Program-made: the position numbers and the translations under genes
Shown here: positions 1 to 23,252 of the stretch, in pieces
Position numbering within the stretch: the stretch's first letter is position 1
Layout: the number at the start of each line of letters is the position of its first letter
DNA from: an uncultured Bacteroidales bacterium
Lineage (GTDB): Bacteria > Bacteroidota > Bacteroidia > Bacteroidales > VadinHA17
Direction of reading: 5' to 3'
Assembly: GCA_963717685.1 (NCBI GenBank)
Contig: OY970346.1
Location: 1,454,981 to 1,518,980 of the forward strand
DNA length: 64,000 nt
The notes under the pieces: generated by a model
What the model saw: only the letters and a program-made list of their open reading frames with translations
Database searches by the model: none
What the model was told of the DNA's origin: nothing

Positions 1-30
1 ATAATCAATTATTTCCTCATTTTGGTCTCA

Positions 31-140
31 TGAACTCACCCCAACCCCTCTCTCCGCCAGTTGGCGGAAAGAGGGGCTATAAAGCTTTATCCCCCCTTCT
101 TTTGCCTGCAAGAGAAGGGGGTCAGGGGGTTGAGTTTATG
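31..140. repeat. GC-rich nested-palindrome intergenic repeat element
   Basis: Hairpin 45-59/62-76 (cccctctctccgcca gt tggcggaaagagggg, 1 mismatch). Hairpin 92-100/113-121 (cccccttct ... agaaggggg). Imperfect outer arms aactcacccc... / ...gggggttgagtt. Shares the motif ccccctt(ct)tttgcct(c)gcaag with the copies at 16741 and 16857. Confidence 0.6.
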
Positions 141-260: not shown

Positions 261-1157
261 ATGAAAAATTATAATCTGAATATCGCTGATTATATCATCA
301 GGTTTGAGAGCGGTGATGACGGACCGGAGCTGGGGTCTTCGGAGAGGTTCCTGAGGAATATTTGCACGAATGAGAGGCAGGATGTGCTGATAAGGGTTCA
401 TGGCGGCAGGCCGGCAATGCCTCATGCAGCAAAAAGAGTATTCAACGCTCCTTACGTTGAGGAGATCGACGGTAGCCGGGTGAAGAAGAGCGACAGGTTC
501 TGGAGCGTCAGCAGGCATCAGGATGATCTGTATATAAGGACCGTTTTCCCACTTTCATCTTCTCCCGGCAACGCAATATTGAAATTCTCGCTCACATCTG
601 TTACATGGGACCTGTGGATCGAAAACTCAGAAGACAAAACCGATCCCATGGAATACCCCCTTGACGGACTGATCCTTTATTACCTCACAGTCATCCATGG
701 GGACATCATGATACATGCATCGGGGATAAACACTGCCGGCAGGGGGTATCTCTTCAGCGGCATTTCGGGAAAAGGGAAGAGCACGATAGCAAGATTATGG
801 AACGATTCGGGCGCAACGATAATTCATGACGACAGGCTGATCATCCGCATTAAGGACAGTAAATATGTAATGCACAACACCCCGGTTTACAATGACGATT
901 CTCCTGGTGAATCACCGCTTGACAGGATATACCTGATCGAACATGGAAGGGAGAATGAGGTAATACCCGTAAAAGGTGCATCAGCAGTGAGCCTTGTGAT
1001 GGCAAACTGCATTCAGCACAACTGGGACCGTAAGATAATTTCAGGACTTCTCGGGTCAGTCTCCTCCATGTGTGCAAGAATCCCGGTCGCAAAGCTCCTT
1101 TTCAGACCCGACAGAAGCATAACAGATCATATTATCAGAGATGAACAGGGAGAATGA
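261..1157 (+). CDS. HPr-kinase-C-like (HprK-related) P-loop serine kinase-like protein
   Basis: 298-aa ORF. The C-terminal half reads IHASGINTAGRGYLFSGISGKGKSTIARLW...IIHDDRLII, i.e. a GxSGxGKST Walker A followed by an hDD motif as in HprK C-terminal domains. The N-terminal ~140 aa are unassigned. Overlaps the next gene by 17 nt. Confidence 0.6.
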   Translation: MKNYNLNIADYIIRFESGDDGPELGSSERFLRNICTNERQDVLIRVHGGRPAMPHAAKRVFNAPYVEEIDGSRVKKSDRFWSVSRHQDDLYIRTVFPLSSSPGNAILKFSLTSVTWDLWIENSEDKTDPMEYPLDGLILYYLTVIHGDIMIHASGINTAGRGYLFSGISGKGKSTIARLWNDSGATIIHDDRLIIRIKDSKYVMHNTPVYNDDSPGESPLDRIYLIEHGRENEVIPVKGASAVSLVMANCIQHNWDRKIISGLLGSVSSMCARIPVAKLLFRPDRSITDHIIRDEQGE

Positions 1158-1602
1158 CACACAAACAATACTGAAGGAAATCAGCTTTTCACTCCTTGAA
1201 AACGGGATAACAATAAGGGCTAAAGCAGATGGTTACAGCATGTATCCGTTCATAAAGCCGGGATCGGTCATCCTCCTAGAACCGGTGACCCCGGAAACAA
1301 CTCTTATTCCCGGTGCGATTGTCGCCTGGAAAAGAGATTCCGGCTTTGTTCTTCACAGGCTCGTAAGGATAATTAATGAGGGAGACGAAGTGCTATATGT
1401 CACCAGAGGCGACAGCTGCCCTGAAGAAGACACACCCCTGATCAGAGTTCGCATTGCCGGCAAAGTACTTGCAATTGAAGATGCGAATGGTAAAATAAGG
1501 GAAGGGTCACAACTTGTCAGCAAGCCATGGTACTTTTATAACAGGTTAAATATATGGATAATGGCCAGAGCAAAGAGAATTGCAAGGTCGATCAGCCAGT
1601 GA
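1141..1602 (+). CDS. S24/S26-family peptidase with SipW/Sec11-type Ser-His signature, no membrane anchor
   Basis: 153 aa. Boxes GYSMYP (nucleophile Ser), PGAIVAW, VLHRLVRI (His where bacterial SPase I/LexA have Lys) and TRGDSCPEEDTP (GDN-like box). No hydrophobic TM segment is visible. Confidence 0.55.
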   Translation: MNRENDTQTILKEISFSLLENGITIRAKADGYSMYPFIKPGSVILLEPVTPETTLIPGAIVAWKRDSGFVLHRLVRIINEGDEVLYVTRGDSCPEEDTPLIRVRIAGKVLAIEDANGKIREGSQLVSKPWYFYNRLNIWIMARAKRIARSISQ

Positions 1603-1675
1603 AGCAAAGGAGCTGAAGTTTAGTAAAAAGATTATTTCCCGTATATAGTTCTTTGAATAATTGTGTTCATAACAC

Positions 1676-1729
1676 AAAAGTCGTTTGATAAAATGTAAAA
1701 AAATACAAAAAGTCGTTTGATAAAATGTA
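1676..1729. repeat. 22-bp direct repeat x2 (aaaagtcgtttgataaaatgta), period 32 bp
   Basis: Identical 22-mers at 1676-1697 and 1708-1729, immediately upstream of the AAA ATPase gene. Confidence 0.8.
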
Positions 1730-1735
1730 TTTTTG
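1728..1735 (+). promoter_or_regulatory. Bacteroidetes-type -7 box (TAnnTTTG)
   Basis: tatttttg at 1728-1735, 16 nt upstream of the ATG at 1751. It overlaps the TTG (1733) used as start in the ORF track. Confidence 0.4.
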
Positions 1736-1750
1736 TGTAAAAATGTACAT

Positions 1751-3082
1751 ATGAGAAGGGCAAGACTTAAGGATCTGATAACCTGGAAAAACTCCGGTTC
1801 ACGAAAGCCTCTGATTATAAGAGGCGCAAGACAGGTCGGGAAAACCTGGCTAATGAAGGAATTTGGAAGATCACAATATGCACAGGTAGTTTATCTGGAT
1901 TTCGAGAAGAATAAGCGACTTAAAGGTTTGTTCAATGATGATTTTGATATAAAAAGAATAATAACAGCATTGCAGGCTGAGTCGGGGTTAACGATCGATG
2001 CAGGAAACACTTTGCTGATATTCGATGAAATACAGAGTGTCCCCGAAGCCATTACTGCTTTGAAATATATTCAGGAAGATTCCAACGGATATAATGTTGT
2101 GGCAGCCGGTTCCCTGTTAGGCATTGCTCTTCATTCTGATTTTTCTTTCCCGGTGGGGAAAGTGGATTTCATGGATTTATATCCGATGACATTTATGGAA
2201 TTTCTTGATGCAGTCGGAGAAAATGGTCTGGTTGAAATGCTTAACAATGGTGACTGGAAGCTAATAACAGTGTATAAATCCAGATATTTAGAAAGACTCA
2301 GACAATATTACTATGTAGGAGGGATGCCGGAAGCTGTCCTGAATTTCAGTTTGCAAAATAATTTCCAGGAAGTGCGAAATATTCAGAAGCAGATATTGAG
2401 CGCTTATGATCTGGATTTTTCAAAGCATGCTCCTGCCAATATTGTCCCCCGGGTCCGGATGTTGTGGAATTCAATCCCGTCACAGCTCGCAAAAGAGAAC
2501 CGGAAATTTATTTATGGATTGATAAAAGAGGGTTCCCGCGCAAAAGAATATGAACTGGCTCTCTCATGGTTAATTGATTGCGGGCAGGTTAACAGGGTGT
2601 TCAGAGTTACGAAACCCGCCATCCCCTTAAAAGCTTATGAAGACAGAGGTGCTTTTAAGTTGTTTCTTGTGGATATCGGATTATTATCAGCTATGGGAGA
2701 TATTGATGCTAAAACACTTCTTGAGAGAAGTGCCATATTCACTGAATTTAAGGGGGCCCTGACAGAACAATATGTATTTCAACAGTTAAACAGCACAAAT
2801 GAATTTGTGATTTATTACTGGTCCGGGGAACGTTCAACTTCCGAGATAGATCTGTTGATTCAACATATGGGTATTTATATTCCTGTTGAAGTCAAAGCAG
2901 AGGAAAATCTGCAGGCTAAAAGCTTAAAAGTATTCAGGGAGAAATTCAATCCGGAATTTTCTGTCCGTACCTCCATGTCCGACTATCGTAAGGAAGGATG
3001 GCTTGTTAATTTGCCATTATACGCGATTTGTTTATTACCGGGAATATGTAAAAGTCAGCAGGCTCCGGGCGCCGGACGATAG
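1751..3082 (+). CDS. AAA-family ATPase (AAA_14 + DUF4143-type, COG1373-like)
   Basis: Walker A GARQVGKTW and Walker B LLIFDEIQ. The long C-terminal region is typical of this stand-alone ATPase family. ATG 1751 is preferred over TTG 1733. The gene is markedly AT-rich (17/60 G+C in lines 1921 and 2761) compared with its neighbours (35/60 in lines 301 and 4741). Confidence 0.7.
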   Translation: MRRARLKDLITWKNSGSRKPLIIRGARQVGKTWLMKEFGRSQYAQVVYLDFEKNKRLKGLFNDDFDIKRIITALQAESGLTIDAGNTLLIFDEIQSVPEAITALKYIQEDSNGYNVVAAGSLLGIALHSDFSFPVGKVDFMDLYPMTFMEFLDAVGENGLVEMLNNGDWKLITVYKSRYLERLRQYYYVGGMPEAVLNFSLQNNFQEVRNIQKQILSAYDLDFSKHAPANIVPRVRMLWNSIPSQLAKENRKFIYGLIKEGSRAKEYELALSWLIDCGQVNRVFRVTKPAIPLKAYEDRGAFKLFLVDIGLLSAMGDIDAKTLLERSAIFTEFKGALTEQYVFQQLNSTNEFVIYYWSGERSTSEIDLLIQHMGIYIPVEVKAEENLQAKSLKVFREKFNPEFSVRTSMSDYRKEGWLVNLPLYAICLLPGICKSQQAPGAGR

Positions 3083-3293
3083 ACACAGGTAAAATATCTC
3101 CGTTCGATCCGTGGTGAATAATTTCTGACCGCCAGGACACGAAGGGTTTTCTAAAAAGCCGTTGAAGAGTGGCATATAATGAACAGACCGTCAATTAATC
3201 ATTTGCTCATTTAAAAAGTGTTACCTAAATTGTGAGGAAAAAGAGAACAACTGAAGGAAGGAATGGATAATAATTATCATGTTTTGATCGTCA

Positions 3294-5090
3294 ATGAAGC
3301 AAAAGGCTGAACATTTCAGGGAATCGATAAGGCTGGTCTGGAAATCGGCGCCGGGCTGGACATTCCTTAATATTTTCATTTCTGTCCTGCGAAGTTTCCT
3401 GCCACTATTGCTGATATGGCTCATTAAAGTCGTTATTGACGGAATAACAGCGACAGTTTCTGCTAAATCAGGCATCCCGGTCATTAACCTTCTCCGGCCC
3501 ATAGTCGCAGTAGTGATAATATGGTTTCTCGATGAGGCTGCTTCCGATATCGGGAATTTTGTCCGTAAGAAGCAATCCGTGAAGCTTGAAGCCTACATGT
3601 ATCGTCTTTTACACGAAAAGGCAGTAAGGCTAGACCTGTTAAATTTTGAGCGGCCCGAATACTTCGATTCGCTGTCACGGGCCTCAAGGGAAGCACCATG
3701 GCGCCCAAACAGCATACTGAATAACATGGTCTCTGTGTTCCGGGCCCTGTTGTCTCTGTTACTGATGGCCGGAGTGCTTACAATGCTTCACTGGACGCTG
3801 GTCATTCTTCTCCTTGTGGTCAATGTCCCGGGTATCTGGCTGAGATTTTACTATGCCGACATGCTTTATCTTTTCCAGCGGAAGCAGACACCGGAAGCCA
3901 GGAAAACAGCCTATTTCAACTGGCTCCTTACCGGCGACCGGCCTTCGAGGGAGATAAGGCTGTTCGGACTTGGAGATTATTTCATTTCGCTCTTCAACAA
4001 ATCATTCATGAAGACGAAGGAAGAAGAAACAGGCATAATAAAGAAACGAACCCTGATCGAGCTAATCTCCGATGTATTCAAGGCAGCAGCGGTGCTAATC
4101 ACAATAATGTTCATTGCCAGTCAGACTATCCACGGGAAAATCACCATCGGCCAGATGGCAATGTTCCTTCTTGCATTCAGGCAGGGCATGGTTAATATAA
4201 AAGAGCTATTCGGGTCGCTCGGTGGCTTGTATGAGGATTCACTGTACACCGGCGATACATTCGAATTCCTCGACCTGGCCGAGAATATTAAGGCAATACC
4301 TCCTGAAATTGTTCCCAATGGCATTGATAAAGCCATAACGGTTGAGGATCTCTCCTTCACATATCCCGGTAACAACATGACCACATTAGATAATATCTCG
4401 TTCCAGGTAAGGAAGGGAGAAATTATAGCACTTGTGGGTCCGAACGGAGCCGGGAAAAGCACACTCGTACGGCTGCTGTGCCGCCTTTATGACCCCGATT
4501 CGGGATCAGTAAAGCTCGATGGGAACGACATAAAAAGTATGGATCCTGATAAATACAGGAAGCTGCTGTCGGTGGTGTTCCAGGATTTCATGCTGTATAA
4601 CCTAAGCGCCGGAGAGAATATCAGGCTGGGAAATATTGATGAACAGCATCCCGAAGAGAAGATGACAAAAGCTTCGAAGGCGACAGGCATTCATGATCTT
4701 ATAACCGGTCTGCCCCAGGGCTATGCCACGCAGATCGGCAACCTGTTCGACGACAGCCGCGAGCTGAGCTGGGGCGAATGGCAGAAGCTTGCTCTTTCAA
4801 GGGCGCTCTTCAGGGATGCCCCGGTACTGATACTCGACGAGCCTTCAAGCTCACTCGATGCCGAAACTGAATATGAGATATTCAGCCATTTCAGGGAAAT
4901 AGTCAGGGGAAGGACCGCAATACTTATAAGCCACAGGTTTACAAATGTGAGCCTGGCCGACAGGATAATTGTGCTGTACGGAGGCAGGATAGCAGAAGCC
5001 GGCCCGCACAGCGAGCTGATGAAGAAAAAAGGGATCTATTACAAGATGTACACCAGTCAGAGCAGCAGGTTCGACAAGGATGAAAAATGA
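3294..5090 (+). CDS. ABC exporter, fused permease + ATPase (no peptidase domain)
   Basis: 598 aa. N-terminal multi-TM domain, Walker A GPNGAGKST, degenerate signature LSWGEWQKLALSRA, Walker B LILDEPSSSLD. Confidence 0.85.
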   Translation: MKQKAEHFRESIRLVWKSAPGWTFLNIFISVLRSFLPLLLIWLIKVVIDGITATVSAKSGIPVINLLRPIVAVVIIWFLDEAASDIGNFVRKKQSVKLEAYMYRLLHEKAVRLDLLNFERPEYFDSLSRASREAPWRPNSILNNMVSVFRALLSLLLMAGVLTMLHWTLVILLLVVNVPGIWLRFYYADMLYLFQRKQTPEARKTAYFNWLLTGDRPSREIRLFGLGDYFISLFNKSFMKTKEEETGIIKKRTLIELISDVFKAAAVLITIMFIASQTIHGKITIGQMAMFLLAFRQGMVNIKELFGSLGGLYEDSLYTGDTFEFLDLAENIKAIPPEIVPNGIDKAITVEDLSFTYPGNNMTTLDNISFQVRKGEIIALVGPNGAGKSTLVRLLCRLYDPDSGSVKLDGNDIKSMDPDKYRKLLSVVFQDFMLYNLSAGENIRLGNIDEQHPEEKMTKASKATGIHDLITGLPQGYATQIGNLFDDSRELSWGEWQKLALSRALFRDAPVLILDEPSSSLDAETEYEIFSHFREIVRGRTAILISHRFTNVSLADRIIVLYGGRIAEAGPHSELMKKKGIYYKMYTSQSSRFDKDEK

Positions 5091-6261
5091 ACTTGATATC
5101 AGGGATGAGGAGATACTTCTTCTCGGCCTGAGCCGCCTTACTTTCGGTCCTGAGCTGAAGGTGATGCTGCAAGCCCTGGCTGAGACCCTTACCGACTGGA
5201 ATTACTTCAGTGCCCTTGCAAATGTTCATGGCGTATCGGCGCTGGTCCTGCATAATCTTGAAAAGCTGGGTTTGCTCAGCCTGCTTCCCTCAGAAACAGT
5301 AAACAGCCTGAGGAGTGCCCTGATGATGAACCTCAGCCGGAACACCAGGAATGCCGAAAGCACGGCAGAGGTATTAAGACTTCTGAACCATGAAAACATC
5401 AAGGTAGTGCTCCTCAAGGGAATGGCGCTTGAAATGACCGTTTATGGCAACGAAGGGCTGAGGCAGATGCTGGATGTCGATGTACTTGTAAGCAGGGACA
5501 ACTGCATCAGGGCAAGAGATATCCTGGAGGAAAACGGTTTTGTCTCAGAGCCTTTAAAGTCGGTACTTTACAAACCCATTATAGCCGACATAGGCAAGCA
5601 TCTTCCCAGGCTGACAAAAGGCGGATTCTCAGTAGAGCTGCACCATGAGCTGTTCGGGGCCGGGAAGAATATCCTGACGAGGATACTTTACGACACCAGC
5701 CAAGAGACGACCCTGAACGGAGAGATGGCTTTCATACCAAAAGCACAGATATTCTTCCTCTACCTCGTAAGGCATCTCCATAGTCATGAGATGAACAACG
5801 AATCGCAGTTGAAGATGTATGCCGACCTGGTAGTTCTGATAGAGCAATTCGGGGATGAGATAATAAATTACGATCTGCCGGTGTATGCCTCCCAGACAGG
5901 GATGCCGGAGATACTGGCATGGAAGCTCGAGCCGCTGAGAGACCTGTGGGGCATGACGTTCCCCGGCTGGATAAATGAATTTATTGATAAATGGTACAAT
6001 CCTGATTCAATTAACAAATTCGTCTTTTTCCTCAAGAGTCCGGCGGGCAATGCCATTACAGGCAGGGGGTCGCTTTACAGGCATGACCTGGCAGAAATAC
6101 CCGGAATCCACAGGAAGATATTGTATGTGCTTGGCGATCTCTTTCCGACAATCACATTCCTGAAGAGACGCTATAATTGTAAAAGCAGATGGAAGGCAAT
6201 GCTTTATTATCCGCTCAGGTGGGGGAAGCTGTGGTATCTGGCCGGGGGGGAAGGAGCATAA
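5080..6261 (+). CDS. Uncharacterised nucleotidyltransferase-family protein (NTP_transf_5-like)
   Basis: 393 aa. The pattern VVLLKGMAL...GLRQMLDVDVLV...ARDILEENGF matches my memory of the family found next to HprK-like kinases and PqqD in peptide-modification loci. Overlaps the ABC gene by 11 nt. Confidence 0.5.
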   Translation: MKNELDIRDEEILLLGLSRLTFGPELKVMLQALAETLTDWNYFSALANVHGVSALVLHNLEKLGLLSLLPSETVNSLRSALMMNLSRNTRNAESTAEVLRLLNHENIKVVLLKGMALEMTVYGNEGLRQMLDVDVLVSRDNCIRARDILEENGFVSEPLKSVLYKPIIADIGKHLPRLTKGGFSVELHHELFGAGKNILTRILYDTSQETTLNGEMAFIPKAQIFFLYLVRHLHSHEMNNESQLKMYADLVVLIEQFGDEIINYDLPVYASQTGMPEILAWKLEPLRDLWGMTFPGWINEFIDKWYNPDSINKFVFFLKSPAGNAITGRGSLYRHDLAEIPGIHRKILYVLGDLFPTITFLKRRYNCKSRWKAMLYYPLRWGKLWYLAGGEGA

Positions 6262-8559: not shown

Positions 8560-8763
8560 TCATCTATTGCTAATATTAGCATTGATACCTTTAGTAATTT
8601 CTATTTGCACTGAGATTTTCAAATTATCCCAAAGCCATTCTGCGACATTTTTAATTCCATCCCAGATGTCAGCAAGGATTTCACCCAGCTTTGTTGTACC
8701 ACCGTTGATCTCCATCTGTTCGGAGACAGTAAGTTCCCTTACAGAAAATTTTTCGATTTCCAT
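8560..8763 (-). CDS. Double-glycine-leader peptide (class II bacteriocin-like / secreted peptide precursor)
   Basis: 67 aa. The leader MEIEKFSVRELTVSEQMEINGG fits the L(-12) E(-8) I(-4) G(-2)G(-1) pattern, with the GG codons at 8698-8703. The 45-aa core is TTKLGEILADIWDGIKNVAEWLWDNLKISVQIEITKGINANISNR. It lies downstream of a C39-ABC/HlyD pair. Confidence 0.75.
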   Translation of the reverse strand: MEIEKFSVRELTVSEQMEINGGTTKLGEILADIWDGIKNVAEWLWDNLKISVQIEITKGINANISNR

Positions 8764-8823
8764 GACAATAAGATTTAAATTATTAATGAATTTATCCCCC
8801 GTTTATTTCATTTGCCCGGGGTT

Positions 8824-9165
8824 TTAGCACTGCAACGAAACATTACCAATTTCGTGCATCTGCGTCCGGAAAAAAAGTATTCGGGAAAGAAAATTACCGC
8901 CTGTGCATTGTTTTTCTTCCTGGCAGCTCATTGGCTTTAAATCACATGTTATGGAAATCTCAAAAGGTTCCTTGTAATAGAATGTTTTGACCGATTTGGA
9001 GTAGACAATGGGAGCCCCTCTTGATTTCAATTCATCAAGCAATTCATAGAGGCTTGTGCGGCTTACTCCCAGTTGCTGTGCAAATTCTTGGGGAGTCCCG
9101 GTGCTTCTCCTTTCGACAAGCTTATGCATCCTTCTGATGCGATCGAGGTATTCAAATACTTTCAT
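8824..9165 (-). CDS. Small HTH-domain protein
   Basis: 113 aa. GTPQEFAQQLGVSRTSLYELLDELKSRG is a helix-turn-helix segment. Sits between the transporter and the peptide gene. Confidence 0.6.
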   Translation of the reverse strand: MKVFEYLDRIRRMHKLVERRSTGTPQEFAQQLGVSRTSLYELLDELKSRGAPIVYSKSVKTFYYKEPFEISITCDLKPMSCQEEKQCTGGNFLSRILFFRTQMHEIGNVSLQC

Positions 9166-9176
9166 ATTGCACTGTT

Positions 9177-11342
9177 TTATATTCTTATTTCATCAAATTC
9201 GATATTCTGATGCATCCACATTCTCCGGAAATGGCCGTCAATCACAGAGAGTTCTGAAAAGGTGCCCTCCTGTATCACCGAGCCGCCATCCAGTACAATT
9301 ATCCTGTCCGCCAGGCTTATAGTGGAGAGCCTGTGAGCTATAATTATTACAGTCTTTTTTTCTTCGCGAAGCAATCTTAGAGTGTCCTGAACAAATGATT
9401 CTGCCAACGAATCAAGGGAAGAGGTGGCCTCGTCGAGAATCAGCACCTCCGGATTGCGGTAAAGAGCTCTTGCAATAGCAATCCTTTGCTTTTGTCCTCC
9501 CGACAGAGTTGCACCATTCTCGCCAATGAATGTTCTGAACCCGTACGGAAGGCTTTCAATGAACCTTGTCATTCCAAGCTTTTCGCAAACTGAAAGGATC
9601 TTTTCCATATCTGGATTCAATTCACCTGCCGCAATATTATCGATAATGTTTCCTGAGAACAGGTCTATTCTCTGTGGCACAATTGAAACGATCCTTCTTA
9701 GTGATTTGCCTGTCAAATGGTTGAGATCGTACTTGCCAATCCTTATATGGCCACTTTGTAAAGGATAAAGATTTTGCAGCAACGATGCCAAAGTTGTTTT
9801 ACCGGAGCCGCTCTCACCGACAACGGCGGTTATTTCTCCTTTCCTTATCCTGAGATTCAGTGAATCAAAAACATCAACCCTGGTGCCGTATCTGAATTTG
9901 ACGTCCTCAAAACTAATATCACTTACCATTTCAGGACTGAGCTCGATCCTGTTATCGTCGCTATCAACTTCAAGATCAAAGATTTCAAACAGCCTGTCGG
10001 CAGCTATCCTGGCATCCTGAAGAGTACGGTTGAATCCAATGACTGAGGTTACCGGCCCGGTAAAGTAACCGACTATTGCATAGAATGAAAGCAGTTCCCC
10101 GGGAGTGATCTGAGATCTGATCACATAAACCGTGCCTGCCCAAAGTACAACCAATGTAATAAGCTGAGTTACAAGGGCAGAGGAGCTTGACGAGAAAATT
10201 GAATTTAATCCTGATTTAAAGATTTTTTCAAGCAATCCAATAAACCGTGTCTCTGTTTTTAGATTCGAATAGTCCTCAAGGCTGAACCGCCTGATAGTCG
10301 ATGCTGAATTAAGTGATTCCACGAGCTGAGCCTCGAGGTCTGCAGCTCTTTCCATGACCTTCCGCTGGACCTTGCTGTTAAGCTTGTCTGAGATATAGTA
10401 AATCATCAAATAAAAAGGAATTACCAGCAACATTATCACTGCCAGCTTCCAGAAGAAAGAAAACATCAGGATAAACGACACAAATAATATGAAGATATTC
10501 AGTACGAGATTGATCGATACATCATTGATAAAAACCCTGATCTTGACTGCATCACCTATTCTTGAAATAATCTCACCGGTTCTCATATTGTCAAAAAAGG
10601 ACTGGGGTAATTTGAGCAAATGCTGATAATATCCGAGTATCAATGACGCATCAATTCTCTGTCCCGTCTTCAGTATAAAGAGCGATTGGAAAAACCCCAG
10701 AAACAACCTTACCAGTATTATAAATATCATTGCCAGCCCCAGCAGGTTGAGAAGATTAAGGTTTCCTCCAGGAATTACATGATCAACAAGTTTGCCGACA
10801 TATATTGATGTTGACAATCCAAGAACAGAAAACGCTACCGCGCCGATAAGAGATTGTATCAGGATATCCTTATTTGGTCTTATCAGGTTCCAGAGTCGGG
10901 CCTGTAAGGACGATTTTTCATCCCTGACACTGAATTTCTCTCCGGGGGCAATCAATATCATGACCCCGGTCCATTCCTTCCTGAACTCATCATGAGGGAC
11001 TTTATGCAATTCTCCATCGAAGGGATCCATTATTTCAATGCACCTGTCAGTTGTTCCTACAATGACCACATAATGAGTAAGTACATTCTTTACAATGAGA
11101 TGAGCAATTGCCGGTTTTGGTATTTTGAAAAGACTCTCCCATTCGCCCTTTACCCCCTTGGCAAGAAATCCCAATTTCCCGGCTGCTTCCACTAACCCGA
11201 GGACATTGGTTCCCTTGCTGTCTGTTCCGGCAAGCTGCCTGATTCTCGAAACCGGCAGATTAACCCTGTAATGGGCTGCAACAGAAGCAAGGCAGGCGGC
11301 GCCGCAATCAGTTATATCCCTTTGTCTGACTTTAATATTCAT
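9177..11342 (-). CDS. Peptidase-C39-domain ABC transporter (bacteriocin/peptide processing and export)
   Basis: 721 aa. N-terminal C39 motifs QRDITDCGAACL (Cys), THYVVI (His) and IMDPFDG (Asp) are all intact. Followed by a 6-TM domain, Walker A GESGSGKTT, signature LSGGQKQRIAIARA and Walker B LILDEATSSLD. Confidence 0.9.
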   Translation of the reverse strand: MNIKVRQRDITDCGAACLASVAAHYRVNLPVSRIRQLAGTDSKGTNVLGLVEAAGKLGFLAKGVKGEWESLFKIPKPAIAHLIVKNVLTHYVVIVGTTDRCIEIMDPFDGELHKVPHDEFRKEWTGVMILIAPGEKFSVRDEKSSLQARLWNLIRPNKDILIQSLIGAVAFSVLGLSTSIYVGKLVDHVIPGGNLNLLNLLGLAMIFIILVRLFLGFFQSLFILKTGQRIDASLILGYYQHLLKLPQSFFDNMRTGEIISRIGDAVKIRVFINDVSINLVLNIFILFVSFILMFSFFWKLAVIMLLVIPFYLMIYYISDKLNSKVQRKVMERAADLEAQLVESLNSASTIRRFSLEDYSNLKTETRFIGLLEKIFKSGLNSIFSSSSSALVTQLITLVVLWAGTVYVIRSQITPGELLSFYAIVGYFTGPVTSVIGFNRTLQDARIAADRLFEIFDLEVDSDDNRIELSPEMVSDISFEDVKFRYGTRVDVFDSLNLRIRKGEITAVVGESGSGKTTLASLLQNLYPLQSGHIRIGKYDLNHLTGKSLRRIVSIVPQRIDLFSGNIIDNIAAGELNPDMEKILSVCEKLGMTRFIESLPYGFRTFIGENGATLSGGQKQRIAIARALYRNPEVLILDEATSSLDSLAESFVQDTLRLLREEKKTVIIIAHRLSTISLADRIIVLDGGSVIQEGTFSELSVIDGHFRRMWMHQNIEFDEIRI

Positions 11343-12511
11343 CCTTCATCATTTTTATTGTAAGGATTGAACCATTTTTCAGCCTTGTCAAATAATAAAT
11401 TGAACAGTGTCCGCCGGGTTACAATAATCCTTGCATTAAAACTCATCCCTTTCTTTATTTCGGCGCATATCCCGTTTTTAAGACTCAGATAAGTTTTCCC
11501 GGGTTTGCATTTAATCCGGAAATATGCATTTGCCCCATCTTCAACAATCATATCGTCAGATATATCAATTATCGTGGCATCAAGCAATCCCCATTCATTA
11601 TGATTCAAGGCATCGATCTGGATTTTAACTTTTTGATCTGGATGGATCAATCCTATATCACCTGGTTTTATGAAACAGGTAGCGATAAGATCTCCTGCAG
11701 GAGATATCTCGGCAATCATCTGGTTAACTGCCACAATAGCGCCAGGCTGGATATCGGAACTCCTGATTATTTCTCCGTGGACAGGAGCTACAACGACCCT
11801 GTTGTTTATCTGTTCCAGGTAACTTTGGAGATCCGCCTGCATTTCAATTGCGTCATTTTTTCTTTCCATCAGGTCGTCCTGCCATTGGTTTTTATGAAGA
11901 ACAAGTACCTGATTAAGGTTTTCCTCATCTGATTTAAAAATATACCGGGAGGTTTCAAAGTCGGCATCAGCAATAATATTCTGATTATGAAGAATCTCAT
12001 TTCGTCTGTGATCGGCAGATGATTTCTGATATTTCTGAAACTGAATGGCAAGGGAATTCTTCATTTTAGCAAACTCCGAATAATATCTCTTTGTCCCAAA
12101 ATTATCAGTATCGAGCTGTATATTATTTCTATCGATCATTGTCAGTTTTTCAAGATCAGCTATCGCCATGCTGTTCTCAAGGATTTTTTTCTGAAGCGCA
12201 TTTTTCTGTGCTTTAATCGTCTCCGAATCAATAATAAACAGTGTATCGCCTTTTTCAATTTCGATCCCATTTCTGACGGATGTATATGTTATCTTCCCCT
12301 GGAAAGGAGAATAAACAGTCTGTTTTTCTATTTCTGATTGAAAATATCCTCTTGCCTGAACTACGATATCAACATAAATAAATGGAAGAATAATCAGATC
12401 TGCAGAAATAAAAAAAATAATGATCCAGTAAATAATCCTGCTTTTCGGAGTTATCCTGATCAGATAATTCTCCAATGTATATTCAGTAAGCGATGAGGGA
12501 ATCATTTCCAT
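11339..12511 (-). CDS. HlyD-family membrane fusion / secretion protein
   Basis: 390 aa. Single N-terminal TM (IIYWIIIFFISADLIILPFIYV), a long coiled-coil-like middle and a beta-rich C-terminus. 4-nt ATGA overlap with the ABC gene. Confidence 0.85.
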   Translation of the reverse strand: MEMIPSSLTEYTLENYLIRITPKSRIIYWIIIFFISADLIILPFIYVDIVVQARGYFQSEIEKQTVYSPFQGKITYTSVRNGIEIEKGDTLFIIDSETIKAQKNALQKKILENSMAIADLEKLTMIDRNNIQLDTDNFGTKRYYSEFAKMKNSLAIQFQKYQKSSADHRRNEILHNQNIIADADFETSRYIFKSDEENLNQVLVLHKNQWQDDLMERKNDAIEMQADLQSYLEQINNRVVVAPVHGEIIRSSDIQPGAIVAVNQMIAEISPAGDLIATCFIKPGDIGLIHPDQKVKIQIDALNHNEWGLLDATIIDISDDMIVEDGANAYFRIKCKPGKTYLSLKNGICAEIKKGMSFNARIIVTRRTLFNLLFDKAEKWFNPYNKNDEG

Positions 12512-12842: not shown

Positions 12843-12958
12843 TTTTTATTGAGAAGGGCGGAGAGATTAGGCTCTGCGAAACCCTGGCAACCAATCCTGC
12901 AGTAGTAGGGCAACGGTGCCAAAACCTAATCCCGGACAAACCCGGGAGATGATAAAAA
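12843..12958 (+). promoter_or_regulatory. SAM-I (S-box) riboswitch aptamer
   Basis: P1 is tttttattg (12843-12851) pairing with gatgataaaaa (12948-12958). Core reads GAGAAGGGCGGAGAGAttaGGCtCtGcGAAaCCCtGGCAACC ... GGTGCCAAAACC ... with P4 hairpin cccgg acaaa ccggg. This matches the S-box consensus elements AGAG-GGnGGAGGGA, GCAACC and GGUGCnAA. It sits upstream of metY-metX-hom. Confidence 0.8.
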
Positions 12959-16719: not shown

Positions 16720-16920
16720 GATGAAAGATAAAATTGTATTAACCCCCTTTTGCCTCGCAAGCTCGGCATCTCCCCCCAATGGGTGGAGATTTTGAGAGGG
16801 AGGGTGAGAAACAGAAAAATGTATATCTGAAAGATGAGATTGTCTTAAAGTGAAACAACCCCCTTTTGCCTCGCAAGCTCGGCACCTTCCTACTGTGGGA
16901 AGGCAGGGAGGGGGTTAAGA
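16720..16920. repeat. Tandem pair of GC-rich nested-palindrome repeat units
   Basis: A 28-nt identical block aacccccttttgcctcgcaagctcggca occurs at 16741-16768 and 16857-16884, each preceded by gaaagat(a/g)a(a/g)attgt. Unit 1 inner hairpin is 16768-16777/16781-16790. Unit 2 has hairpin 16885-16890/16898-16903 and a perfect outer stem aaccccct/agggggtt (16857-16864/16909-16916). Confidence 0.75.
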
Positions 16921-23088: not shown

Positions 23089-23252
23089 TCTGATCTAAAT
23101 TTTTAATTAAACAAAAGATGGTAAGATTGGTTGGCAGGAAAAACAATAAATCTTGGCGTTTTAGCATTTTTTCCCGTGGTTGCAATCTGCACAAATCTTT
23201 CCACCTATAAAACCATGGCACAAAGCAAATAAAAAAAAACAAGAAAAAAAAA

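Follow-up and report, generated by a model that had tools for sequence, protein, structure and literature searches.

A kinase-peptidase-exporter cassette conserved in Bacteroidales as a likely counterpart of the biosynthetic core for linear polyphosphorylated peptides

A four-gene cassette divided by an insertion

The window analysed here is a stretch of 64,000 nucleotides (nt) from an uncultured Bacteroidales bacterium (assembly GCA_963717685.1, contig OY970346.1, positions 1,454,981 to 1,518,980 of the forward strand), at the left end of which four genes encode a cassette whose resemblance to the machinery for linear polyphosphorylated peptides (LPP) is the subject of this report. The members of the cassette, with protein lengths in amino acids (aa), are as follows.

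261-1157, plus strand: HPr-kinase-fold P-loop kinase, LppK-like (Pfam ScmC family), 298 aa
1141-1602, plus strand: Sec11/SipW-type (S26B) soluble serine peptidase, LppS-like, 153 aa
3294-5090, plus strand: MsbA-like half-transporter ABC exporter, LppD-like, without a peptidase domain, 598 aa
5080-6261, plus strand: NTP_transf_5 nucleotidyltransferase (NTase), LppN-like, an accessory member, 393 aa

An earlier interpretation made from the DNA letters alone (the sequence-only reading) had described these as four same-strand genes in two overlapping pairs, and all four open reading frames (ORFs) proved intact and exactly where that reading had put them, with overlaps of 17 nt between the kinase and peptidase genes and 11 nt between the exporter and NTase genes in the ORF listing of the window. 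The families it had assigned (kinase, Ser/His peptidase, ABC exporter, NTase) were borne out by hidden Markov model (HMM) matches and by structural models, the kinase HMM scores lying below curated cut-offs. Its picture of the cassette as a single unit did not survive, since a fifth same-strand gene, which it had passed over, splits the two pairs.

1733-3082, plus strand: AAA_14 + DUF4143 ATPase gene, inserted and outside the system, 449 aa

The product of this gene matches Pfam AAA_14 (4e-28) and DUF4143 (2.7e-34), and, among the candidate defence families of PADLOC, PDC-S01 (2.2e-179). Given its lower G+C content (0.36-0.41, against 0.46-0.51 for the cassette), the PDC-S01 match, and the fact that an AAA_14/DUF4143 gene between the peptidase and ABC genes was seen in no related locus, we regard it as an insertion. 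A copy of the gene, 74% identical, sits elsewhere in one related locus (L021, 14584-15906, minus strand). We also considered whether the operon might itself be an anti-phage defence system and rejected this, because PADLOC returned no match for the kinase, peptidase, NTase or RRE (the PqqD-like recognition element discussed below) and only generic ATPase-domain matches for the ABC protein; the one strong match was to the inserted gene. A scan for sigma-70 promoters and terminators was uninformative for this phylum.

The conserved unit in related genomes

To place the cassette among its relatives we scanned one genome per Genome Taxonomy Database (GTDB) species and fetched the best 80 of at least 189 loci, all from metagenome-assembled genomes (MAGs), with the source genome of the window not included. 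Gene counts per locus were taken only where the contig was long enough, and gave the following.

PqqD-type gene of about 95 aa, immediately 5' of the kinase gene: 72 of 72 loci, one frameshifted
Peptidase gene by the kinase gene: 71 of 75 loci; of the other four, one is frameshifted, one is a remnant and two lack the gene
ABC exporter gene by the kinase gene: 64 of 64 loci
NTP_transf_5 gene: 41 of 60 loci; deletion remnants in two of the others

From these counts the conserved unit is RRE-kinase-peptidase-exporter, with the NTase an often-lost accessory, and the co-conservation that the sequence-only reading had proposed as a check is thus found. At least 189 species-level genomes encode a relative; the 80 examined are almost all labelled Bacteroidales and were sampled from fen, peat, lake sediment, soil and similar habitats. 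The best match among GTDB species representatives stood at 67%. Homologues of the kinase fall into 1,114 clusters at 90% identity (E <= 0.001), the best non-self members being 61-69% identical and, where named, assigned to uncultured Bacteroidales, Bacteroidia or Bacteroidota; a kinase profile run against 50%-identity representatives matched 9,631 clusters at E <= 0.001 and 192 at E <= 1e-30.

The setting of these loci is a housekeeping one. On the 5' side of the RRE gene relatives carry rnr (on the other strand), then ispG, cysS and metY-abh-hom, and the recurrent 3' neighbours scanned were gldN/M/L, an FGE-sulfatase-family gene, porP, an ABC-2 ATPase gene with DUF5687, and a CAAX-protease-like gene; genes for Y1 transposases of the IS200 type are likewise found repeatedly near related loci. 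In three genomes of a sister clade, in which kinase and peptidase are fused (see below), the locus is split, with ABC-NTase lying 5' of cysS-ispG-rnr and the RRE-fusion pair 3' of it. These split loci continue into metH, metF, metK, usp, asnS and rpoN, which is the gene order of the window at 17-28 kb, and the ABC and NTase genes stay paired even there. Since the same backbone is retained, the two modules have been kept in one housekeeping neighbourhood through rearrangements.

A probable RRE gene at the window edge

The sequence-only reading had found no RRE, and indeed no PqqD-like gene was detected in the window by tblastn. This absence is uninformative, however, because the window starts only 260 nt 5' of the kinase gene, and given the invariable presence of a PqqD gene directly upstream of the kinase in relatives it is most likely an artefact of the window edge. 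The features of this short region are as follows.

1-33, plus strand: presumed 3' end of a PqqD-like RRE (lppB-like) gene cut by the left window edge, from the frame 1 reading and the ends of relatives' RRE genes
45-76 and 92-121, inverted repeats: two REP-like GC-rich hairpins separating the kinase gene from the presumed RRE gene

Frame 1 of the window is open from base 1 and reads IINYFLILVS*, and the RRE genes of relatives end in ...KYLIIN*, ...IIK* or ...IIH*. Bases 1-33 might thus be the final RRE codons, followed by a junction into which two hairpins were inserted, an assignment that rests on nine bases and is suggestive. Considering together the IIN-type ending, the upstream RRE gene of relatives and the junction insertions described below, the window probably opens inside the RRE gene.

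The RRE proteins of relatives were profiled against solved RREs, giving matches to PbaB1 (9X90) at 3.5e-8, TbiB1 at 1.6e-6 and LppB (9X8Z) at 6.3e-6; their best NCBIfam match is lasso_PqqD_Bac, and they also match ScmD (1.2e-8).

The distance from RRE stop to kinase start varies among relatives from -47 to 806 nt. The long gaps hold either GxxExxY mini-elements (TIGR04256, 1.3e-37) with GCCACCAAGGCAC-type flanking repeats or GC-rich palindromes like those at window 45-121. The latter are inverted repeats of 15 and 14 nt that are 93% complementary and have 2-nt loops, for which the repeat element that the sequence-only reading had placed upstream of position 261 is a fair description. The junction as a whole is a hotspot for mini-elements, in the form of a 129-aa GxxExxY gene between inverted GCCACCAAGGCAC-type repeats, to which further solo repeats are added in some cases; such GxxExxY insertions were seen in loci L010, L018, L020, L021, L034, L038, L044, L049, L061, L069 and L079. 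By eye, the hairpins at 45-121 are similar in style to a 53-nt GC-rich element present as two direct copies (81% identical) at window 16731-16783 and 16847-16899, 3' of the homoserine dehydrogenase gene.

Kinase, peptidase and their fusions

The kinase matches NCBIfam HprK_rel_B at 1.3e-9 (37.6 bits against a cut-off of 200) and ScmC at 5.2e-9 (35.9 bits against 125), and Pfam Hpr_kinase_C at 0.007, under the curated cut-off; its precomputed Pfam label is PF27840 ScmC. It is not an HPr kinase/phosphorylase proper by TIGR00679, against which it scores 16.2 bits with a cut-off of 240. These sequence matches are confined to residues 143-252, and across 22 homologues the Walker A segment G167-T175 and H189-D-D-R192 are invariant. 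The AlphaFold2 (AF2) model (pLDDT 81) has HPrK/P as its top PDB matches (probability 1.0, E 9e-5), followed by PEPCK, with the HPrK/P match limited to catalytic-domain chains of about 150-205 aa (TM 0.3 on the query, 0.5-0.6 on the target).

The peptidase gave HMM matches to Peptidase_S24 (2.3e-5), archaeal-type signal peptidase I (1.6e-13) and SipW (2.2e-11), with the NiSOD maturation protease also among its NCBIfam matches, and a profile built from 27 family members matched human SEC11C/SEC11A at 3.5e-6. Residues S33 (in GYSM), H72-R73, R89-G-D-S92 and D97 are invariant in the family and make up the Ser-His-Asp pattern of the Sec11/SipW (S26B) branch. Of particular importance for what follows, the peptidase is homologous to LppS (WP_029196374.1), the leader peptidase of the LPP system, with 31% identity over 103 aa (E 7e-14), an hhalign probability of 98%, and lengths of 153 and 151 aa. 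Inspection of the sequence revealed no hydrophobic N-terminal anchor, so the soluble, signal-peptidase-like protease of the sequence-only reading stands as an anchor-free member of S26B. With SipW, Sec11 and archaeal signal peptidase I it shares the Ser-His(-Asp) pattern and the motifs SM.P, HR and GD; unlike SipW and Sec11 it has no visible anchor and its relatives fuse the domain to a cytoplasmic kinase, which points to leader peptides rather than Sec signal peptides as the likely target.

These fusions were met among the 50%-identity representatives, several of which, at 430-577 aa, consist of a kinase followed directly by a peptidase that retains the motifs (G/N)(Y/L/F/R)SM.P, HR and (R/C/K)GD. 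Taken alone, the fusion in L024/L087 might have been a frameshift artefact, as rnr is split in the same contig, and it was accepted only after more than 100 independent fused clusters had been found: a search with one fused protein returned 313 clusters at E <= 1e-10, and the 120 listed were nearly all of fused length and from Bacteroidales genomes. The fusion is that of the large sister clade, and makes kinase and peptidase a Rosetta-stone pair. No membrane or hydrophobic segment was apparent between the fused domains on inspection, which argues that the peptidase works in the cytoplasm like the ATP-dependent kinase and that the two act there on one substrate. In one of the representatives (P0253, 481 aa) the RRE, the kinase and the start of the peptidase seem to lie in one frame; its linker is frameshift-like, and it may be an assembly artefact.

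Exporter and nucleotidyltransferase

The exporter matches ABC_tran (1e-33) and ABC_membrane (4.5e-11), its best NCBIfam match being MsbA at 277 bits, under the cut-off of that family, and a Pfam scan found no C39 domain in it. The NTase matches NTP_transf_5 (PF14907) at 6.6e-45; K113-G114 and D132-x-D134 are invariant across its homologues, and its AF2 model (pLDDT 88) has a pol-beta nucleotidyltransferase fold, with MenT1, ANT(2'')-Ia, TM1012, LnuA and FKRP as the top matches.

Search for a precursor and for lasso genes

Given that LPP precursors carry a recognizable leader, we scanned the window and the related loci, within 10 kb, with regular expressions for the LppA leader motifs [Y/W]xxP...FET..S and Px9Fx[T/A], which gave nothing credible, and searched six frames of the window and 91 loci with an HMM of 14 published LppA leaders, for which the best E value was 2.1. 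Clustering of all small ORFs revealed no conserved one in or beside the operon other than a 69-aa helix-turn-helix (HTH) gene. As all three approaches were negative, the substrate would be encoded elsewhere or carry a different leader.

Two candidate places for a precursor were tried and discarded. The variable RRE-kinase gap was ruled out because its contents are GxxExxY mini-elements or GC-rich palindromes. An ORF beginning MGFNL..., 3' of the 69-aa HTH gene, is interrupted in several species and differs in length by non-multiples of three, and for these reasons the stretch is more likely RNA or regulatory DNA.

Nor did we find the signature enzymes of lasso peptide biosynthesis. Neither an Asn-synthetase-like cyclase nor a transglutaminase-like (B2) protease was present in the cassette or among the 46 ORFs scanned from 6.3 to 62.5 kb, in agreement with what the sequence-only reading had reported, and none occurred within 10 kb in the annotated contexts of related loci or among the recurrent neighbour families of the 80 loci. 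An ordinary lasso cluster truncated by the window edge was also rejected, because relatives have rnr, ispG and cysS directly 5' of the RRE gene, without C or B2 genes.

Relation to the LPP pathway and other known systems

The LPP pathway was described by Popov et al. (Nat Commun 2026; PMC13381572) from the cluster lppA-K-B-S-D-N of Paenibacillus alginolyticus and other Bacillota. Its core set consists of a SpI-like peptidase, a discrete RRE, a kinase resembling HprK, an NTP transferase that is uncharacterised and a transporter resembling MsbA, without a macrolactam synthetase, and only about one third of such gene sets are linked to lasso genes (PMC13381572). When lppA-K-B-S-D-N was expressed in B. 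subtilis, both the precursor and the 45-aa core appeared in forms with one to four phosphates, all on core Ser3; deletion of lppK abolished phosphorylation, deletion of lppS abolished leader cleavage, and deletion of lppN changed nothing (PMC13381572). Unphosphorylated precursor is poorly cleaved, and cleavage requires that the RRE (LppB) present the leader, which has the form YxxPxVLxHQxIxFETxxS (Px9Fx[T/A]); membership of the family calls for a precursor with this leader in the cluster or within 5 kb (PMC13381572). The authors discuss LPPs and paeninodins as "restricted to the Bacillota", patchy and transfer-driven (PMC13381572).

The Bacteroidales cassette shares with this cluster an LppS-homologous peptidase, an HprK-like kinase, an MsbA-like exporter and an NTP transferase, likewise without a macrolactam synthetase, and in both systems the NTase is dispensable, 19 of 60 Bacteroidales loci being without it and the lppN deletion being without effect. 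The sequence-only reading had guessed at a pathway in which a linear peptide is phosphorylated, cut and sent out of the cell, which is essentially right and matches an experimentally demonstrated family with the same five protein types (PMC13381572); the kinship it saw to the paeninodin/pseudomycoidin tailoring set minus the cyclase is supported by the LPP protein set as well, whereas its description of the pathway as uncharacterised has been overtaken by that publication. The two systems also differ. The set described here is from Bacteroidota rather than Bacillota and is ordered B-K-S-D-N with no A gene; no precursor of the YxxPxVLxHQxIxFETxxS type lies within 10 kb; it occupies a conserved housekeeping position, whereas LPP clusters are patchy and lie beside capsule or lasso loci; and its sister clade has kinase-peptidase fusions and split two-module loci. 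Because the clustered LppA-type precursor is lacking and phylum, genomic stability and fusions differ, the cassette is not a plain member of the LPP family.

Bacteroidales entries do occur in the published data. Sequence similarity network (SSN) cluster 8 of Supplementary Data 1 contains Paludibacter propionicigenes (WP_013444635.1, WP_013444633.1) and a Porphyromonadaceae MAG, undiscussed in the text, in which the peptidase is fused to an ABC exporter (about 745 aa) with an adjacent RRE, the remaining columns being 0 or ND (PMC13381572). Between the Paludibacter RRE and those of relatives of the window, identity is 39% (hhalign probability 99.3%). The Paludibacter peptidase is a Sec11-type module, with GNSMYP, HR and KGD, linked to an exporter in the same bacterial order; there the peptidase is joined to the exporter, whereas the window-type peptidase is free or, in the sister clade, joined to the kinase.

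Other known systems resemble the cassette in part. The paeninodin and pseudomycoidin lasso clusters (PadeK/PsmK, PsmN, B1, D) have an HprK-like kinase, an NTP_transf_5-type enzyme, a discrete RRE and an ABC exporter, and the best solved-structure match of the relatives' RRE profile is the lasso RRE PbaB1; unlike them, the cassette has no cyclase, B2 cysteine protease or lasso precursor, and has a serine peptidase for the leader instead. The SynChlorMet cassette pairs ScmC with the PqqD homologue ScmD, alongside two radical SAM/SPASM enzymes (ScmE, ScmF), but the window kinase scores far under the ScmC cut-off and neither the window operon nor those of relatives include a radical SAM/SPASM gene. 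The HprK-related kinase A/B systems are matched in a similar way, the kinase scoring far under the HprK_rel_B cut-off and the operon having neither an ATP-grasp nor a radical SAM/SPASM partner. Our literature search turned up no further paper on the LPP family and one paper on Bacteroidales RiPP mining that makes no mention of the operon; searches on SynChlorMet, HprK-related kinase and NTP_transf_5 found nothing.

Proposed function and alternatives

Taken together, the identities of the four proteins, with their folds and their conserved catalytic residues, the co-conservation of the RRE and the homology of the peptidase to LppS make it likely that the cassette is the Bacteroidales counterpart of the LPP biosynthetic core. 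By analogy, the Bacteroidales proteins would perform the chemistry of the Paenibacillus alginolyticus enzymes on a substrate peptide encoded outside the cassette. A discrete PqqD-type protein, presumably encoded just left of the window, would bind the leader of a ribosomal precursor; the HPr-kinase-fold enzyme (261-1157) would add one or several phosphates to a core serine; the cytoplasmic Sec11/SipW-type peptidase (1141-1602) would cut the leader off the RRE-presented precursor; the NTP_transf_5 enzyme (5080-6261) may decorate the phosphate further; and the MsbA-like ABC protein (3294-5090) would export the linear product.

Several observations weigh against this assignment. There is no LppA-like precursor in cis, though a clustered precursor defines LPP clusters, and the RRE gene itself lies outside the window. 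Every kinase family match falls under curated cut-offs, and kinase and NTase are likened to LppK and LppN by family and predicted fold. The published family is Bacillota-restricted, patchy and transferred, and a housekeeping setting is unusual for a peptide-antibiotic cluster. Moreover, co-expression could be disturbed in this genome by the 1.7 kb inserted between peptidase and exporter genes and by the hairpins 5' of the kinase gene.

The lack of a linked precursor and the stability of the setting also lend themselves to a different account, in which LPP-like chemistry serves a system passed on vertically, whose task is to modify and export, or to process, a cellular protein or a peptide encoded elsewhere, for instance in envelope or signalling functions, or in which foreign peptides are captured, modified and expelled for resistance. 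A precursor is absent in cis across more than 80 loci, the set is carried by at least 189 species-level genomes, and the same backbone (metY-hom, cysS-ispG-rnr, metH-metF-metK-asnS-rpoN) surrounds it in two deeply diverged clades, even when it is split; for the resistance variant, the closest solved folds of the NTase include the antibiotic-modifying ANT(2'')-Ia and LnuA. Yet RRE proteins are known solely as leader-peptide binders, unclustered precursor genes are the ordinary explanation for a missing one, the NTase fold matches are generic for the pol-beta superfamily, and such an alternative substrate is without direct evidence, so that we consider this account unlikely. Another candidate substrate would be the GG-leader peptide encoded at 8560-8763 on the minus strand, or its equivalents, such that the cassette tailors class-II-like bacteriocins secreted by the adjacent C39-ABC/HlyD. 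The sequence-only reading had pointed to this peptide as the only clear secreted one nearby, and a GG-leader/HTH/C39-ABC/HlyD locus does lie 2-9 kb 3' of the cassette here, as it does in about 17 related loci, the only ones in which it was seen. That locus, however, owns its leader protease and exporter, is missing within 10 kb of many cassettes (e.g. L003 and the fusion-clade loci L088-L090), and encodes highly variable peptides at variable spacing and with varying intervening genes, transposases included; the window peptide has no [Y/W]xxP by inspection and no match to the LppA-leader HMM. With nothing tying the peptide to the cassette, we hold a partnership of the two to be very improbable.

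Least probable of all, and already contradicted by the conservation pattern, is that the cassette is a functionless, decaying remnant of a paeninodin-type lasso cluster from which cyclase, B2 protease and precursor have gone. Firmicutes lasso clusters do have RRE, kinase, NTase and ABC exporter as their accessory set (PMC7533575), and the RRE scores slightly higher against lasso PbaB1 than against LppB; but the four genes are intact and of normal length, their catalytic residues do not vary among dozens of species at 55-70% identity, the set is kept in at least 189 species, and a dedicated serine peptidase, even fused to the kinase, replaces B2.

A bolder reading is conceivable, which we would sooner doubt than accept: that the LPP-type machinery of Bacteroidales is not a mobile antibiotic cluster but a chromosomal system of long standing, inherited vertically, its substrate being unlinked or no dedicated small precursor existing. 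Were this true, RRE-guided serine polyphosphorylation with signal-peptidase-like cleavage would have a physiological role in Gram-negatives (in the envelope, in signalling or as the source of a peptide-derived factor), and the kinase-peptidase fusions would be a natural minimal form of the enzyme pair.

What is new here is the LPP-type set in a large Bacteroidales clade (at least 189 species-level genomes and more than 1,100 kinase clusters), in a housekeeping setting, with fusions and with no LppA-like precursor. It would extend the LPP family to Gram-negatives that live in fens, peat, soils and sediments, and the natural kinase-peptidase fusions support the reported coupling of phosphorylation and leader cleavage. 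With no LppA-like gene nearby, the question it raises is where the substrate is located; and because the enzyme set can occur without a clustered precursor, genome-mining tools centred on precursors will miss such loci.

Neighbouring loci and noncoding elements

The GG-leader peptide discussed above belongs to a separate class-II-bacteriocin-type locus at window 8560-12511 (minus strand), which comprises the peptide gene (8560-8763, 67 aa), an HTH gene, a C39-ABC gene (721 aa) and an HlyD gene (390 aa). Homologues of the peptide occur in L034, L071 and L086. The GG-leader peptides encoded by other related loci are unrelated to it, and CAAX-protease-like genes are found there too, as are ABC-2/DUF5687 immunity-type genes. 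The 113-aa HTH_11 protein encoded just 5' of the C39-ABC gene (window 8824-9165, minus strand) has a conserved C-terminal tail that reads ...(S/T/N/A)GG, 5-7 residues, ILF(F/S)R..., and its homologues lie at L034:11615-11956, L035:17730-18074 and L071:17041-17382. A double glycine is the kind of site cleaved by C39 domains.

In most relatives the ABC/NTase module is followed 3' by the 69-aa HTH_11-like gene (in one clade only), a conserved palindrome, ATATGTTGTATAACATAT, and a conserved noncoding stretch of about 230 nt. This last starts with GGGTTTTAATTT and includes TCTCGCTGCA...CGTGC. It also has small hairpins, in which some changes are compensatory, and at its end stands a CCCCGGG...CCCGGGG-T-rich terminator. 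The arrangement was found at L020:13838-14340, L022:14843-15300, L035:14694-15200 and about 35 other loci, as well as at L088:4200-4470, L089:3930-4200 and L090:4200-4470, and is absent from the window. The noncoding stretch gave no Rfam match at E <= 0.01; it is a candidate for a small RNA, or for a regulatory element, associated with the exporter module.

Hairpin variants of the form TCTCGCTGC...GCTGATT...CCCCGGG occur in multiple copies between unrelated genes, some after GTAG, with five in L033:5784-9185 (minus strand) and others in L083, L061, L073, L076, L010, L016 and L024, where genes for IS200-type Y1 transposases of about 150 aa recur. They look like a REP/RAYT-type repeat family of these Bacteroidales, and if they are, the small-RNA reading of the 230-nt element is weakened.

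Two riboswitches scored over the Rfam gathering threshold in the window, namely a SAM riboswitch at 12843-12958 (plus strand), 5' of a metY-like gene, and a SAM-II riboswitch at 23151-23210 (minus strand), 5' of metK.

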